Of a DNA stretch of 32,339 nucleotides, positions 20,665 through 28,219 are shown piece after piece. Source of the DNA: an uncultured Clostridia bacterium (lineage in GTDB: Bacteria > Bacillota > Clostridia > TANB77 > CAG-465). How positions within the stretch are numbered: the first letter of the stretch is position 1; the number at the start of each line of letters is the position of its first letter. The position numbers and the translations under genes were made by a program. Under the pieces are notes generated by a model. That model was not told where the DNA came from. It searched no databases and saw only the letters and a program-made list of their open reading frames with translations. The stretch is taken from the NCBI GenBank assembly GCA_947628575.1, contig CANRAK010000003.1, forward strand, positions 1 through 32,339, given 5' to 3'.

Positions 20665-20757
20665 AAATTTGTAATAAAAACAAAAAAATGTAAAAAACAT
20701 TTTGATTTTTAGTTATTTATGATATACTATAATATATGTAAAGTATGGAGGATGTAT

Positions 20758-21972
20758 ATGAATAGTAAAAAAGGAATATCAAAAATTGCAATAGTAATTA
20801 TTATTTTTGTTGTTATATTATTAATAGCAGGTGGAACTATATTAACTATATGGCTTATAGATAAAAATAAACCTGTAACTGAAGTAAAACTTTATGAAGA
20901 ATATAATGAAGGACAGGAAATTTCAAATGATGAATTTGAAGAAGATGAAGTATTAACACCACTTGCAAAAGGTTTAACAGAATATAGAAATGACGAGCTT
21001 GGTGTAAGATTTGGTTATTTTGATAGTATGGAAATACCTGTTGATGAAGAGGCAGATGATGGTACATATATTTCAACAATCAATTCTGAAGAAAAATCTA
21101 CTGTAATTCAACTTAGAATTGGAAAAATAGATGTATCACAACCAGGTATTGATCATATAGATAAACAAAAAGCTGCTCTAAAACAAGAACTAATTGAAGC
21201 TGAAACTTATGAAATAGAAGTTGAAGAAAACGGAAAGAAAGTTACTAAAACTATTGTACCTACAGAAGATGAAGTATCAGATATAGATATATCTTATACA
21301 TTATTTGCAGGACAATTAGCTGTTAGATTTAAATATACAGAAAATGATATGGAAGCAGCTAGAGTATTAACTATTAAGGATGAGAAGGTATACTCTTTAA
21401 CATATAAAGCTGAAAAGGATGATTATAATTATAATGACCAAGAAAAAATATTCCAAACTTTTGAATTTATAGATAGAATTGATGATGTAAAACCAGATGA
21501 TTTAAATACAGTCGTTATAAATGGTAAAGAGTATAGTTTACCAATGAAAGTATCAAATATTGAAGGTTTACCTATAGATTCAAAATACTCTACTGGAAAA
21601 ATTCAACCTAATTATTATACAGTAGTATCACTATATGAATTACAAAATCCAAAATATAGTGGATACATATACAATGCAAGAGCTAGTGTAAATGAAATAG
21701 GTAAAGGATATATTACTGCAATATCTACAGATGTTGACAGAGGAGGAAATATTAAAATATATAAAGGTGTAGAAATTGGAACTACATATGCTAAAGTTAA
21801 AGAATTATTAGGAAGCCCAACTAAGCAATATTATTCAGATGATGAGTCTACACTAACAAACATTTATCAGATACAAGGTGTTACAATACAACTTAGATTT
21901 AGAAATGATGATTTATCTAAACCAGACGAAACATCAAAAGTAGTATCAATATTACTTAGAGTTCCTAGATAA
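20758..21972 (+). CDS. Membrane-anchored extracytoplasmic protein with a prepilin-like N-terminus and possible PsbP/DcrB-like domain
   Basis: Start moved from 20719 to ATG 20758 (GGAGG at 20747-20751). MNSKKG followed by a hydrophobic helix. YRN...GVRF.Y ... VYSLTY.A...Y......IFQTFEF resembles the PsbP/DcrB fold. Confidence 0.6.
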   Translation: MNSKKGISKIAIVIIIFVVILLIAGGTILTIWLIDKNKPVTEVKLYEEYNEGQEISNDEFEEDEVLTPLAKGLTEYRNDELGVRFGYFDSMEIPVDEEADDGTYISTINSEEKSTVIQLRIGKIDVSQPGIDHIDKQKAALKQELIEAETYEIEVEENGKKVTKTIVPTEDEVSDIDISYTLFAGQLAVRFKYTENDMEAARVLTIKDEKVYSLTYKAEKDDYNYNDQEKIFQTFEFIDRIDDVKPDDLNTVVINGKEYSLPMKVSNIEGLPIDSKYSTGKIQPNYYTVVSLYELQNPKYSGYIYNARASVNEIGKGYITAISTDVDRGGNIKIYKGVEIGTTYAKVKELLGSPTKQYYSDDESTLTNIYQIQGVTIQLRFRNDDLSKPDETSKVVSILLRVPR

Positions 21973-22122: not shown

Positions 22123-23808
22123 ATGCAAAGAATTTGGAATTTGAAGAAATATGATAATAATTTAGTTGAGAAGATAAGAGAAGAGTATAAAGTTTCTGAA
22201 ATTATGGCTAAGCTTATTATATCAAGAGATATAGATTTTAAAGATATAGATAGCTTTTTAAATGGCACTTTAGATGATTTAAATGACCCATATAAGATAA
22301 AAGATATGGATAAATTTGTTAAAAGGGTAGATGAAGCTATAAAAAATAAAGAAAAAATTTGCATTTATGGTGACTATGATGTAGATGGTATTACTAGTAT
22401 AACCATAATGTATAAATTTTTAACTAAGCTTGGTGCAGATATTATGTATTATTTACCAGATAGACTAATTGAAGGATATGGAATAAATAATAATGCCCTA
22501 AAGGAAATTAAAAATAAAGGAGTATCATTAATTATTACAGTAGACTGTGGTATTACAGCAATAGAAGAAGTAAAATTTGCTAAGGAGCTAGGTCTAGATG
22601 TATGTATAACTGACCATCATGAGTGTGCACCGGAATTGCCAGATGCTCTAGCAATAGTAAATCCTAAAAGAAAAGATGATACATCTTCATTTAAGCTACT
22701 TGCAGGTGTTGGTGTAGCATTTAAGTGTATTAGTGCAATAGCAATAAAATATAATTTAGATAAAGATGAGTATCTAAAATATTTAGATATAGTTTCTATT
22801 GGAACTATATCAGATATAGTTCCACTTATAGGGGAAAATAGGATTATATCTAAATATGGACTAAAAATGATGGAAAACACAGAAAATATAGGACTTAAAG
22901 CATTGCTAAAACTAGTAAATGCTAAAGAAATAGATAGTATGATGGTATCATTTGGAATGGCACCAAGAATAAATGCTTGTGGCAGAATGGGTAATGCTTC
23001 TGCAGCAGTCAAACTGTTGCTTGAAAAGGATAAAAATACAGCAGAGAAAATAGCATTAGAGCTAGATAATTTAAATCAAGAAAGAAAAAATGTTGAAACT
23101 ATAATATTTAATGATGCTATGGAAATAATAAAGGAAAAAAATCTTGAATCAAAAAATAGTATCGTACTATATAAAGATTCTTGGCATAATGGTGTTATAG
23201 GAATTGTTGCATCTAGACTTGTTAATATGTATTATAAGCCTGTAATACTACTAACTAAAGAAAATGGTATTATACGTGGTTCAGGACGTTGTCCAGCTGG
23301 ATTTTCAATTTATGATGCACTAACTGATTGTAAAGATAAACTAATACAATTTGGAGGTCATGAGCTAGCAGCAGGACTTAGCGTACAAGAAGATATGCTA
23401 GAAGAATTTATACAATCATTTGAAGAAGCTTCTTTTAAAAGAAAAGATGCTATTTCTGAACAGATTATAAATATAGATGCACAAATAGAAAGAAAAGACT
23501 TAAATATACAGATAATTAGAGATATTAGGACTCTTAAGCCATATGGACAGTCTAATCAGGTACCAATATTTGTATATAAAAATTTAAAAGTTAATGCTAT
23601 AAGAACAATAAAGGACGATAAGCATTTAAAACTAGTATTAAAAGATGATAAAAGCTTAATAGATGCTGTTGGATTTTCAATGGGACCTAGACGTGATGAG
23701 ATAAGGATAGGAGATAAAATAGATGTTGTAGGTAATGTAGAAGTTAATACATACAACACACCTAAAACTATACAACTAGTATTACAAGACTTTAAAAAGT
23801 CAATTTAA
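22123..23808 (+). CDS. recJ: Single-stranded-DNA-specific exonuclease RecJ
   Basis: GDYDVDG, PDR..EGYG, TVDCG, TDHH, GTISDIVPL.GENR, PRINA.GR and GGHELAAG. Confidence 0.97.
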   Translation: MQRIWNLKKYDNNLVEKIREEYKVSEIMAKLIISRDIDFKDIDSFLNGTLDDLNDPYKIKDMDKFVKRVDEAIKNKEKICIYGDYDVDGITSITIMYKFLTKLGADIMYYLPDRLIEGYGINNNALKEIKNKGVSLIITVDCGITAIEEVKFAKELGLDVCITDHHECAPELPDALAIVNPKRKDDTSSFKLLAGVGVAFKCISAIAIKYNLDKDEYLKYLDIVSIGTISDIVPLIGENRIISKYGLKMMENTENIGLKALLKLVNAKEIDSMMVSFGMAPRINACGRMGNASAAVKLLLEKDKNTAEKIALELDNLNQERKNVETIIFNDAMEIIKEKNLESKNSIVLYKDSWHNGVIGIVASRLVNMYYKPVILLTKENGIIRGSGRCPAGFSIYDALTDCKDKLIQFGGHELAAGLSVQEDMLEEFIQSFEEASFKRKDAISEQIINIDAQIERKDLNIQIIRDIRTLKPYGQSNQVPIFVYKNLKVNAIRTIKDDKHLKLVLKDDKSLIDAVGFSMGPRRDEIRIGDKIDVVGNVEVNTYNTPKTIQLVLQDFKKSI

Positions 23809-23822
23809 AATAGGAGATGTAA

Positions 23823-25988
23823 ATGGAACAAAAAGATTATTTAGAAGAAATAAAAAATGTATTGGAAAAAGAGAATATAAAATATGAATTAGATGAACTA
23901 GAAAAAGTAGTAGAATATGCAAAAGATAGCTATAAAGACAAACAAATACTTAACGATAGTACAATAGATTTTGTACTTGAAGTAGCAAGTGAAGTAGCTA
24001 CATTAAGACTAGACGATAAATCTATATATGCAGCTCTTATGTACCCTATTGTAGATTATGATGATTTTGATGAGAAAAAATTATCTGAAGTTGCTGGTGA
24101 AGAAACAACAGATTTAATCTTAACTTTAAAACAGTTAGAAGAAGATTATAAAAAAGAAGATAAAATAAATATATCAACAAATCCAGAAGTGCTAAGAAAT
24201 ATGTTTATGGCTATTGCAAAGGATATAAGAGTAGTAATTATTAAAATAGCTGAAAGACTATCTTATATGAGAAGAATGAATACATTAGATAATAGCGTAA
24301 AGGAGCAAATAGCAAAAGAGTGCTTAGAAATATATGCTCCTATAGCTCATAGACTTGGTATGTCAAAAGTAAAATCTGAACTTGAAGATATATCTTTTAG
24401 AATTTTACTACCAGAAGAATATCACAATATAAAAGAGCAAATTGATGAGAAAAAAGAAGAAAGAGAAGCATATATTGATGCAAGGATAAAAGAAGTAACA
24501 GAAAAGCTTAAAGAGCAAAATATAGAAGCAACTATATATGGTAGACCAAAACATTTTTATAGTATATATAAGAAAATGAAAGCAAAATCATGTAAAGCAG
24601 ATGATTTATTTGACCTTATTGCAATAAGAGTTATTGTAAACTCAATAAAAGACTGCTATAGTGTATTAGGAATTGTACATGATATGTATAAGCCAATGCC
24701 TGGTAGATTTAAAGATTATATTGCTGTACCAAAGACAAATATGTATCAGTCACTTCATACTACTGTTTTTGGTGAAGGTGGTAGACCATTTGAAATACAA
24801 ATACGTACATGGGATATGCACAATGTAGCTGAACGTGGTATTGCAGCACACTTTTCATATAAAGAAAAAAGTAAGAAAATATCTGAGGCAGATAAAAAGA
24901 TTATTTGGCTTAGAAAAACTTTAGAGATACAAAAAGAACTAGCAGATAATACTGAGAATATGGATAAAATTAAAACTGAGATATTTGGAGAAGAAGTTTT
25001 TGTATTTACACCTAAAGGAGATATTAAGTCTATGCCTAAAGGCTCAACACCAATAGATTTTGCATATTCAATTCATCAAAAAGTTGCAGAGCAAATGGTA
25101 GGTGCTAAAATAAATGGAAGAATGGTACCACTTAATACTAAGCTTGAAAACAAAGATGTTGTTGAAGTTGTAACAAGTAAAAATTCAAAAGGACCTAATA
25201 GAGACTGGCTTAAATATGTAAAGACTACAAGTGCTAAAAATAAAATAACTAGTTTCTTGAAAAAAGAAGGTAGAGAAATTAATATCCAAAGTGGTAAAGA
25301 GTCTTTTGATAAAATTTTAAGAAAGCAAAAATATTCACGTGATGAACTATTAAAAGATGAATTTATAGAGCCTGCTTTAAAAAGATTTAATTGCAAAACA
25401 TTAGATGATTGTTATGAAAATATAGGATTTGGTAGTATATCACCTGTAAAAGTGGTTAATAAAATTGTAGAGTTATATGAAGATAGTATTAATCCAACAG
25501 ATGACTCAAAGTTAAAAGTAGTTACTAAGAAAAGAAAAAATAATAGTAATGATTTAGTAGAAGTAGAAGGAATAGATAACTGCTTAGTTAAATTTGCTAG
25601 ATGCTGTTCACCAATACCAGGAGATGATATAGTAGGATATATTACTTTTTCAAATGGTATTTCAATTCATAGAAAAGACTGTGCTAATTTAAAAGCATTA
25701 GATATAGAAGCAAGAACTATAAAAGTATCATGGAAAGAGCAAACACAAGCTGAATTTACAGCACGTGTTGTTGTAAAAGCAAATGATAGAGATGGAGTAC
25801 TTGCAGATATATTAAAAACTATGCGAGAACTAAAAATAGATATAACTGAAATAAGTACTAAAGTTACACAAGATAGAGAAAATATAACTAATTTATGTGC
25901 AACAGTTAAAGATATAAACACTATGCAGACTATGATAAAAGCATTAAGAAAAATAGATAGTGTTTTTGATGTAAGGAGAATAAAATAA
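23823..25988 (+). CDS. rel: Long RelA/SpoT homologue, (p)ppGpp synthetase with a degenerate hydrolase domain, plus TGS, ZFD and ACT domains
   Basis: APIAHRLG, GRPKH.YSI..KM, RFKDYI..PK.N.YQSLHT, EIQIRT..MH..AE.G.AAH, TGS (FTPKG...TPIDFAY..H), CC.P.PGD...IHRKDC and ACT (DRDGVL). Confidence 0.95.
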   Translation: MEQKDYLEEIKNVLEKENIKYELDELEKVVEYAKDSYKDKQILNDSTIDFVLEVASEVATLRLDDKSIYAALMYPIVDYDDFDEKKLSEVAGEETTDLILTLKQLEEDYKKEDKINISTNPEVLRNMFMAIAKDIRVVIIKIAERLSYMRRMNTLDNSVKEQIAKECLEIYAPIAHRLGMSKVKSELEDISFRILLPEEYHNIKEQIDEKKEEREAYIDARIKEVTEKLKEQNIEATIYGRPKHFYSIYKKMKAKSCKADDLFDLIAIRVIVNSIKDCYSVLGIVHDMYKPMPGRFKDYIAVPKTNMYQSLHTTVFGEGGRPFEIQIRTWDMHNVAERGIAAHFSYKEKSKKISEADKKIIWLRKTLEIQKELADNTENMDKIKTEIFGEEVFVFTPKGDIKSMPKGSTPIDFAYSIHQKVAEQMVGAKINGRMVPLNTKLENKDVVEVVTSKNSKGPNRDWLKYVKTTSAKNKITSFLKKEGREINIQSGKESFDKILRKQKYSRDELLKDEFIEPALKRFNCKTLDDCYENIGFGSISPVKVVNKIVELYEDSINPTDDSKLKVVTKKRKNNSNDLVEVEGIDNCLVKFARCCSPIPGDDIVGYITFSNGISIHRKDCANLKALDIEARTIKVSWKEQTQAEFTARVVVKANDRDGVLADILKTMRELKIDITEISTKVTQDRENITNLCATVKDINTMQTMIKALRKIDSVFDVRRIK

Positions 25989-25991
25989 TAT

Positions 25992-26702
25992 ATGGTTAAT
26001 ATAGAAGAAGTACAACTAGAGATATTAGACACAGGGCATATAACTAATTGTTATATCTTATATAACAATGAAAAAGAGGCTTTAATAGTAGACCCTGCAT
26101 TTAATTCAGAAGTTATAATAAATAAAATAGAAAAACTAAATTTAAAACCTAAATATGTGTTATTAACACATGCTCATGCTGACCATACAATGGCATTAAA
26201 TGAAATAGTTGAAAAGTATAATATAAATGTTATAGCAAATAAAAAAGAAAAAAATATGATTGAAGGAAAAGTCAATGATTACGCTGATGTATTTGGACTT
26301 AAGACAATAGAAAAGCCATTAGATAAATTTATTTATTTAAAAGATGGAGAAATAATTAAACTTGGTAATGATGAAATTAAGATGATACATACTCCTGGTC
26401 ATACAGTTGGTAGTGTTTGTTATTACATAGTAAACCAAAATATGTTACTTACAGGTGATACATTATTTAAAGACTGTTTTGGAAGATGCGACTTAGCTAC
26501 AGGTAGTATAGATGATATGATTAAATCGTTAATAAAATTATATAAAGAATATAATAATTGTAGAATATATCCAGGCCATGAATCAGTAGGTGTTACAGTT
26601 GAAGATACATATTATTATATAAAAATATATCTAAGAAAAAGCTTTCAATTTGACTTAGATAGTTATGTTAAAGATGATGGAGGAAAATATGAATCACTTT
26701 AA
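25992..26702 (+). CDS. MBL-fold metallo-hydrolase (glyoxalase II-like)
   Basis: NCY, VDP, THAHADH, HTPGHT.GS, TGDTLF and YPGH. Usual position downstream of rel. Confidence 0.93.
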   Translation: MVNIEEVQLEILDTGHITNCYILYNNEKEALIVDPAFNSEVIINKIEKLNLKPKYVLLTHAHADHTMALNEIVEKYNINVIANKKEKNMIEGKVNDYADVFGLKTIEKPLDKFIYLKDGEIIKLGNDEIKMIHTPGHTVGSVCYYIVNQNMLLTGDTLFKDCFGRCDLATGSIDDMIKSLIKLYKEYNNCRIYPGHESVGVTVEDTYYYIKIYLRKSFQFDLDSYVKDDGGKYESL

Positions 26703-27439: not shown

Positions 27440-28219
27440 ATGAAAGTTTTTGTTTTAGGTGAAGATAAAAGAAGTATGAATTTAAGAAAGATATATAATT
27501 GTAGTTCAACTAAGTTTGAAGATGCAGATGTTATATTTTGTCCTATACCATTTTCTAAAGATAATATAAAAATTAACGGTGAAAACATAAAAATTGATAC
27601 ATTAATTGATGCATTAAGAGGTAAGGATAAAATATTAATCTCAGGCGTTATAAATGATGAAATTAGAGAAAAATTTGAAGAAAATAATATAAAATATTAT
27701 GACATAATGCAATTTGAAGAATTTAGTGTTATGAATGCTATTGCTACAAGTGAAGGAGCGATAAAAAAGGCTATTGAAATGACAGATAAAACACTTAATA
27801 ACTCTAATATATTAATACTTGGATATGGCAGAATTGGAAAGATTTTAGCACATAATTTAAGTGGATTTGGTGCTAAAATATATTGTGAAGCAAGAAAAGA
27901 AAAAGATATTGCATTAATTAAAAGTATGGGATATAATGAAGTAGATTTAAGTAGTTTAGATTATGTTTTGCCAGATATGGATATTATTTTTAATACTATA
28001 CCACATATTATGTTAGATAAAGATATAATAGATATATTAAAAGAAGATGTTAGTATTATAGACTTAGCATCAGCACCAGGTGGTGTAGACTTTGAATATT
28101 GCTCTAAAAAAGATATAAATGTGTGTTGGTATTTAGCTATTCCATCAAAAGATTCGCCATATTCTGCTGCTATGTACATAAAAGATACTATGGATAAAAT
28201 ATTAGGAGAGGTTAACTAA
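27440..28219 (+). CDS. spoVFA: Dipicolinate synthase subunit A
   Basis: GEDKR (GGD.R-like), PIPFS.D, NAIATSEGAI, ILGYGRIGK, FNTIP and IDLASAPGGVDF. Confidence 0.88.
   Translation: MKVFVLGEDKRSMNLRKIYNCSSTKFEDADVIFCPIPFSKDNIKINGENIKIDTLIDALRGKDKILISGVINDEIREKFEENNIKYYDIMQFEEFSVMNAIATSEGAIKKAIEMTDKTLNNSNILILGYGRIGKILAHNLSGFGAKIYCEARKEKDIALIKSMGYNEVDLSSLDYVLPDMDIIFNTIPHIMLDKDIIDILKEDVSIIDLASAPGGVDFEYCSKKDINVCWYLAIPSKDSPYSAAMYIKDTMDKILGEVN

Follow-up and report, generated by a model that had tools for sequence, protein, structure and literature searches.

The stretch of DNA analysed here (the window, 32,339 nucleotides) corresponds to contig C3 of the assembly of an uncultured Clostridia bacterium, which comprises 1.19 Mb in 103 contigs and is 87% complete. 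The nearest public records of this source genome are metagenome-assembled genomes of uncultured gut Clostridia from rabbit, human, sheep, deer and mouse, together with Clostridium sp. CAG:465 and CAG:921. On the forward strand of the window, positions 23823..25988 encode the gene rel, whose 721-residue product is a single long RelA/SpoT homologue (RSH), identified by its open reading frame (ORF), its Pfam domains and TIGR00691 and by holding the only RelA_SpoT domain found in the genome. The product is read as Rel[hS], that is, a putative pseudo-hydrolase joined to a synthetase predicted to be active. Upstream lies recJ (22123..23808, forward strand; DHH, DHHA1 and RecJ_OB domains), and downstream a gene for a metallo-beta-lactamase-fold (MBL) protein (25992..26702, forward strand; Lactamase_B, 106.5 bits), beyond which ung, dpaA and folD follow on the same strand. 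The recJ–rel–MBL neighbourhood had been claimed in a preliminary description of this DNA; domain hits and synteny in relatives bear it out, the same order being common to the genus and to order-mates that carry an intact Rel.

Along the Rel protein, Pfam placed an HD_4 domain over residues 31-180 (23913..24362, 97.6 bits), RelA_SpoT over residues 240-350 (24540..24872, 144 bits), TGS over residues 392-451 (24996..25175, 82 bits), the zinc-finger region RelA_AH_RIS over residues 497-627 (25311..25703, 39 bits), which includes CCSPIPGD in the translation, and the ACT/RRM domain (ACT_4) over residues 642-719 (25746..25979, 51 bits), all on the forward strand. The full-length protein scored 666.6 bits against TIGR00691, above the cut-off of 499.2, which makes it a long RSH of the RelA/SpoT family; it fell under the cut-offs of both the RelA equivalog NF008124 (547.2 versus 728 bits) and the SpoT equivalog (504 versus 947 bits). 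Its best solved relatives by sequence are actinobacterial Rel (8fr8), E. coli RelA (5iqr) and B. subtilis Rel (6yxa). The synthetase residues R241, K243, H244, D264, R269, G294-I300 (GRFKDYI), Y308-S310 (YQS), H312, E324, Q326 and R328 do not vary across the 81 sequences of the alignment. The window synthetase reads PGRFKDYI, in which RFKD (24705..24716) is an RXKD motif of the Rel/SpoT type, whereas E. coli RelA reads PDEFDDYV with the RelA-type EXDD. Both the claim of intact synthetase, TGS, zinc-finger and ACT regions and that of RFKD instead of EFDD are thus upheld by the Pfam hits, the invariant residues and the alignments.

The ED of the HDxxED motif (Glu81-Asp82) has a catalytic role in the hydrolase. 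In RelSeq the Mn ion is described as bound by His53, His77 and Asp144, with Asp78 approaching upon substrate binding, and either R44Q or D78A abolishes the hydrolase activity (PMC13299517). To locate the equivalent residues, the window Rel was aligned by phmmer with RelSeq (1vj7) and B. subtilis Rel and placed in a family alignment. The RelSeq residues R44, H53, H77, D78, E81, D82, D144 and N148 correspond to I, F, Y, P, D, Y, E and Y, respectively, in the window Rel, and the intact set of hydrolase residues is therefore missing. Phe-50 (23970..23972) stands at the place of the Mn ligand His53; Tyr-74 and Pro-75 (24042..24047), within the segment AALMYPIVDYD (residues 70-80), occupy that of the HD doublet His77-Asp78; and Asp-78 and Tyr-79 (24054..24059) that of Glu81-Asp82. 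The loop H..Q.R.SG.PY..HP has become YKDKQI-LNDSTIDFV, with Ile at the Arg44 place. Further along the domain, KIAERLSYMRR (residues 141-151, 24243..24275) takes the place of KLADRLHNMRT, bringing in Glu-144 for Asp144 and Tyr-148 for Asn148, and AKECLEIYAP (residues 164-173, 24312..24341) carries Cys-167, which is Cys throughout the genus and Thr in order-mates and other canonical Rel proteins. The alpha6-alpha7 loop (the 'H-loop', 24135..24185) is three residues longer than that of relatives. Because three of the four Mn ligands are replaced by Phe, Tyr and Pro, and R44, the ED pair and N148 are replaced as well, the protein would be unable to degrade the alarmone (p)ppGpp, and its hydrolase activity has probably been lost. 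These alignments reproduced, at the exact coordinates, the change of HD to YP with loss of ED that the preliminary description had reported, as well as its KIAERLSYMRR and AKECLEIYAP segments and the loss of the H..Q.R.SG.PY..H motif; the E. coli RelA motifs that it had given (AALLFP, KLAER, AKEC and EFDD) are likewise correct, E. coli RelA reading AALLFPLAD, KLAERIAHL, AKECTNIYAP and PDEFDDYV.

The degenerate site is not confined to one genome. Our genus set holds 50 species genomes, 49 of them with a Rel, and in 48 of these the HD/ED positions can be read (they are masked in G017). HD/ED is non-canonical in all 48; in other families of the same order, the 14 examined genomes with a Rel all have the canonical form (H.GQ.R..G.P...HP, LHDV[VI]EDT and KL.DRLHNM). 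The genus proteins fall into graded states. Thirteen genomes (class III) have LLHE and KLADRLYNM, with KKR.SGK kept in some; LLHG is found in 16 (class II); and 17 genomes including the window's (class I) combine YP, YL or SP with KI[AT]ERLS[YF]MRR and Phe or Tyr at the His53 place. Three genomes with other states form an odd class. Since the window's states recur across 17 species of the genus, chance or sequencing error is ruled out, and the degenerate HD domain is a lineage trait and not an artefact. The preliminary description had proposed to check whether YP is conserved in relatives: it is within class I, as YP, YL or SP, but classes II and III carry HG and HE. The decay is thus older and more graded than a single gene, extending over the whole genus in three stages, HE, then HG, then YP.

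The preliminary description had also proposed separate trees for the hydrolase domain and the synthetase domain, and these were built with IQ-TREE as quick trees of 62 rows, in which E. coli RelA and a single RelA-like fragment (P0086), the latter taken from the search of representatives, stood for RelA. In both trees 18 genus rows and the metagenomic sister P0004, itself degenerate, formed one clade (SH-like approximate likelihood ratio test, SH-aLRT, 97 for HD and 100 for the synthetase). Class I was nested inside this clade (support 100 and 96, respectively), within Clostridia and apart from E. coli RelA, which grouped elsewhere with the RelA-like fragment, both on long branches. Against TIGR00691 the HD domain alone scores 275 bits in an intact order-mate, 169 in class III and 135 in the window, compared with 96.5 for E. 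coli RelA; against the RelA model the same three score 119.5, 93 and 97 bits versus 403 for E. coli RelA. A phmmer search with the window HD domain against 1.84 billion representatives matched 7496 proteins at E <= 0.001; among the best 150 of these, 116 are canonical at HD and ED, 32 are degenerate and two do not cover the site, and only two are RelA-like. The change arose in situ in the ancestral rel gene, and descent from the Rel lineage is evident from the position of the protein among Clostridia Rel in the trees and from the conserved recJ–rel locus.

Because synteny, trees and profile scores all point to a change in situ, the likeness to RelA is taken as convergent and is confined to a few active-site positions. 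At 33 HD positions class I departs from a residue shared by 90% or more of 23 canonical sequences. Four of these positions are identical to E. coli RelA (P75, D78, E144 and C167) and cluster at the metal site, where Y74 is in addition similar to the Phe of RelA; eight of the 33 are identical to the RelA-like P0086. The alpha6-alpha7 loop counts 38 residues in class I and 35-36 among order-mates and the remaining classes, compared with 41 in E. coli RelA and 35 in SpoT; RelA is reported to have a longer version of this loop, which acts there as a switch of the synthetase (PMC8012599). The resemblance is real but narrow. Of the proposal that a synthetase-only Rel evolved independently by convergence, the loss of the motifs and the in-situ Clostridia origin hold; the convergence is smaller in extent than proposed, and the inactivity of the hydrolase is a prediction. 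As a separate observation, the representatives P0023, P0055, P0066, P0076, P0098, P0102 and P0141, from unknown taxa, are full-length long RSHs with degenerate HD/ED, RXKD-type where the motif was matched, which suggests that the HD domain of long RSHs may have decayed independently on further occasions, and more commonly than is described.

The HD region changes faster than the rest of Rel. Identity between the window and order-mates is 33-37% in the HD domain and 53-61% in the synthetase; between an intact order-mate and Lachnospiraceae the corresponding values are 60% and 62%. The pseudo-HD domain is nevertheless under purifying selection, the ratio of non-synonymous to synonymous substitution rates (dN/dS) among close class I pairs being 0.08-0.17 for HD, 0.025-0.05 for the synthetase and 0.02-0.09 for the C-terminal domains (rough values, with dS about 1). 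An AlphaFold2 model of residues 1-385, made from an 81-row alignment, reached a mean predicted local distance difference test score (pLDDT) of 81.4 and a predicted template modelling score (pTM) of 0.77, with pLDDT of about 90 over the HD helices (residues 10-100 and 130-200) and low values in the alpha6-alpha7 loop. Its best PDB matches are the Firmicute Rel structures 6yxa and 7oiw (TM-score 0.91, root mean square deviation 2.1), RelA 5iqr ranking eighth. The model thus predicts that the HD fold is kept.

A search of the source genome for a second RSH or hydrolase, likewise proposed in the preliminary description, yielded a second HD_4 protein outside the window, on contig C70 (C70:4466-6154, forward strand; locus L002 976-2664). 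This 562-residue protein has two HD_4 domains in tandem. Its first domain is canonical (HKGQKRKGGDPYIIHP, AALLHDVIEDN and KLNDRTDNLRT); the second has a conserved non-canonical set, LLHEVFKKC and KLSNRANTCT. The same pattern of canonical domain 1 and variant domain 2 is seen in 21 of the 21 genus genomes that have the tandem protein, which exists in short (~424 residues) and long (~560 residues) forms, the long form with a helical N-terminal extension of ~140 residues. The best PDB sequence matches of the C70 protein are Rel hydrolase domains and small alarmone hydrolases (SAHs), and its AlphaFold2 model (pLDDT 89.7, pTM 0.88) matches with both domains the folds of SAHs and of a (p)ppApp hydrolase (7smg) at TM-scores of 0.72-0.77. 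Relatives number 2300 at E <= 1e-5, and the sole name among the best 120 listed is 'HD domain-containing protein'. Judged from its motifs, the C70 protein is most plausibly the candidate (p)ppGpp hydrolase of its own genome.

The complement of alarmone enzymes varies across the genus. Besides the 21 genomes with the tandem protein, seven of the 50 have canonical SAHs of 161-253 residues and three have other HD_4 proteins of 459-680 residues. The last (G014:C70, G052:C13 and G055:C13; loci L186-L188) contain the N-terminal half of HD_4 (HKGQ.R and LHDVVEDT) and are otherwise uncharacterised. A strong second RelA_SpoT domain, in proteins of 226-264 residues with the usual motifs of a small alarmone synthetase (SAS), is present in 19 of the 50 genomes and in 14 of the 17 of class I; examples of 228 residues with intact motifs are G008:C8:54239-54925 (L189 240-926) and G012:C1 (L192 359-1045). 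One genome of the genus, G019 (96% complete), has no Rel and no SAS, yet encodes a tandem HD_4 protein on contig C45 with two TAA stops inside the protein-search match, and so has a hydrolase candidate without any detected synthetase. In two genomes of genus g4 in the same order (G027 and G031, 97% and 95% complete) neither the Rel query nor the tandem HD_4 query found a match, and the RSH system may have been lost in this sister family.

We consider it probable that the window rel is, by position, orthologous to the ancestral rel gene of Clostridia, that its hydrolase decayed stepwise, that it now works in a RelA-like way and that the C70 protein degrades the alarmone in this genome. The active site would have decayed stepwise within the genus while the HD domain persisted as a pseudo-hydrolase with structural and regulatory roles. 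The TGS, AH-RIS and ACT regions would most likely read deacylated tRNA on stalled ribosomes, as in RelA; the intact synthetase would then make (p)ppGpp that the same protein could not degrade, and in the source genome degradation would fall to the separate tandem HD_4 protein through its canonical first domain.

Several findings weigh against this. An acidic cluster (D78, D80, D81, D83 and E84) directly follows YP, and E144 could still bind metal. With dS near 1 the dN/dS values are rough. In an approximately unbiased (AU) test, forcing class I together with RelA lowered the log-likelihood by 27 and gave p = 0.066, with only two RelA-type rows. No HD_4 domain besides that of Rel was found in 24 of the 50 genus genomes (mean completeness 94.8%), incompleteness across all 50 accounting for about 2.5 misses, and eight class I genomes (G005, G006, G008, G015, G050, G056, G058 and G059) combine a SAS with no extra HD_4; no SAS was found in the source genome, which is fragmented and 87% complete. 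It follows that these bacteria do not in general require a separate RSH-type hydrolase, and the case for the C70 protein as a needed partner is weakened accordingly. When the Rel hydrolase is lost beside SAS enzymes, the result is described as toxicity or impaired growth for S. aureus, B. subtilis and E. faecalis alike (PMC10117726), and deletion of spoT is described as lethal in relA+ E. coli (PMC3153485). Where a SAS occurs without an extra HD_4, either another enzyme class would thus remove the alarmone or the pseudo-HD domain would keep an unexpected activity. The preliminary description had foreseen a split system with a separate hydrolase encoded elsewhere; the C70 candidate fits this in the source genome, but the 24 genomes do not. 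Its interpretation was right for the most part, but oversimplified both the split system and the reach of the convergence.

An unexpected activity of this kind could come from a rebuilt site, for example one formed by E144 and the acidic cluster after YP, which would leave Rel bifunctional with no need for another hydrolase. The alarmone must be removed somehow in the genomes without a second HD_4, eight of them with a SAS, and the pseudo-HD domain is both under purifying selection and folded with confidence in the model. We still regard a rebuilt site as improbable: Phe, Tyr and Pro have replaced three of the four metal ligands, other residues stand in for R44, E81/D82 and N148, a single R44Q or D78A is enough to abolish the activity of RelSeq (PMC13299517), and E. 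coli RelA, which has changes of this kind as well, is described as lacking hydrolase activity (PMC8012599, PMC3153485). The features shared with RelA, namely aromatic-Pro for His-Asp, AER for ADR, AKEC and the longer H-loop, would alternatively be explained if the N-terminal domain had been acquired by recombination from a proteobacterial-type RelA, a history that the AU test did not reject at 0.05. Such a domain swap is hard to credit, however, when class I is nested in the genus in both domain trees, sister species hold the intermediates HE, HG and ADRLYNM, and AKEC is already present in classes II and III. Moreover, HD identity is 42-63% to genus mates (closest pair excluded) versus 29% to E. 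coli RelA, only four of the 33 derived states are those of E. coli RelA, and the RelA profile score does not rise.

The remaining alternative accepts that Rel is synthetase-only and assigns removal of the alarmone to a non-RSH enzyme, of Nudix type or another HD family, or to dilution, with the C70 protein in an accessory role, for example in (p)ppApp metabolism or related to phage. We hold this to be rather unlikely, though a more serious contender than either a rebuilt site or a domain swap. The tandem gene is patchy among very close species (present in G042 and G047, absent from G048), and its 21 genomes include G019, which lacks Rel and SAS. Enzymes of suitable families are plentiful, with 4-9 Nudix and 9-12 HD-family proteins per genome in generic searches of hydrolase-less genomes; Nudix enzymes of T. 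thermophilus degrade ppGpp (cited in PMC3153485), as does B. subtilis NahA (PMC10117726), and the C70 domains also resemble the (p)ppApp hydrolase 7smg (TM-score 0.77). On the other side, domain 1 of the C70 protein has all canonical (p)ppGpp-hydrolase motifs and finds its best sequence matches in the hydrolase domains of Rel; the generic searches for HD and Nudix proteins, though rich in candidates, singled out no specific non-RSH hydrolase. We favour stepwise decay with the C70 protein as the hydrolase of the source genome.

Compared with known systems, the window Rel appears RelA-like in its working and Rel by descent, while failing the hydrolase feature that defines Rel. With E. coli RelA (5IQR) it shares a long RSH in which a degenerate HD domain is kept under selection beside a synthetase that is active in RelA and looks intact here, and it has the same aromatic-Pro at His-Asp, Glu at Asp144, AKEC and lengthened alpha6-alpha7 loop. 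It differs from RelA in apparently not being related to it by descent, in having RXKD and not EXDD, in scoring below the RelA equivalog cut-off and in having no SpoT-like long paralogue, each genome of the genus having a single long RSH. The bifunctional Rel enzymes of Bacillota (B. subtilis 6YXA, S. aureus 7OIW and RelSeq 1VJ7) share its locus type, domain order and RXKD, and are its best sequence and structure match and its phylogenetic home; what sets the window Rel apart from them is the replacement of the catalytic hydrolase residues. Independent divergence of the HD domain in a long RSH is also known from the plant Rsh4/CRSH proteins. Bacteroidetes RshB is a further such case, with a long HD branch 'similar to that for RelA' (PMC3153485); RshB, however, is a second copy beside an intact Rel, whereas here the sole long RSH is affected. 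Domain 1 of the C70 protein has the same H.GQ.R.GG.PY..HP, HDxxED and KL.DR..N motifs as the SAHs (P. aeruginosa SAH 6YVC, TdActApo2 7P1Y, RelH 7QOC and Mesh1), and both of its domains are predicted to have the SAH fold. It differs from these single-domain enzymes in having two HD_4 domains in one chain (420-570 residues in proteins of this type), a 140-residue helical N-terminal extension in the long form and a non-canonical domain 2.

In Bacillota a single bifunctional Rel is described as the rule, with its hydrolase as the main route of (p)ppGpp removal and needed to detoxify the products of SAS enzymes (2023 review, PMC10117726). A survey of RSHs gives Clostridia as Rel[HS], and among the long RSHs that it lists only RelA is marked hydrolase-inactive [hS] (PMC3153485). 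In our literature searches no account of a Bacillota Rel with a dead hydrolase came up; sequences of this kind could already be among the RSHs from 24,072 genomes that are classified in Datasets S1 and S2 of PMC7229694. The decay in this genus would represent a second, independent origin of a RelA-type enzyme with living intermediates, the series HE, HG, YP capturing, if the reading is true, a bifunctional Rel turning into a RelA-like one. It can also serve as a natural experiment for learning by which substitutions the HD domain is locked 'off' and why it is retained. The most interesting loose end is the apparent absence of any RSH hydrolase in half of the genus. It is a doubtful but conceivable prospect that a widespread genus of gut Clostridia lacks RSH-type hydrolases altogether, at least eight species having a dead Rel and a SAS with no HD_4 hydrolase. 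If that were true, an unrecognised non-RSH enzyme degrading (p)ppGpp, or a hydrolase-free reset of the stringent response, would have to exist; the patchy hydrolase complement points to an unrecognised alarmone-degrading activity in common gut bacteria.

Other features of the window concern the surroundings of rel. The MBL-fold gene (25992-26702) evolves unusually fast compared with neighbouring genes: identity among close YP-class species is 49-59%, versus 85-89% for Rel and 87-94% for ung. It was considered as the missing alarmone hydrolase and set aside, since the same gene is also found downstream of intact rel genes and is thus not specific to the dead-HD state. The G+C content of the window is 26-29%. 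Upstream, positions 20719-21972 hold an ORF of 417 residues that has a hydrophobic segment at its N-terminus and matched no Pfam family at E <= 1e-4. Positions 27440-28219 encode a homologue of dipicolinate synthase subunit A (DpaA_N domain), which suggests spore formation in this small-genome lineage.

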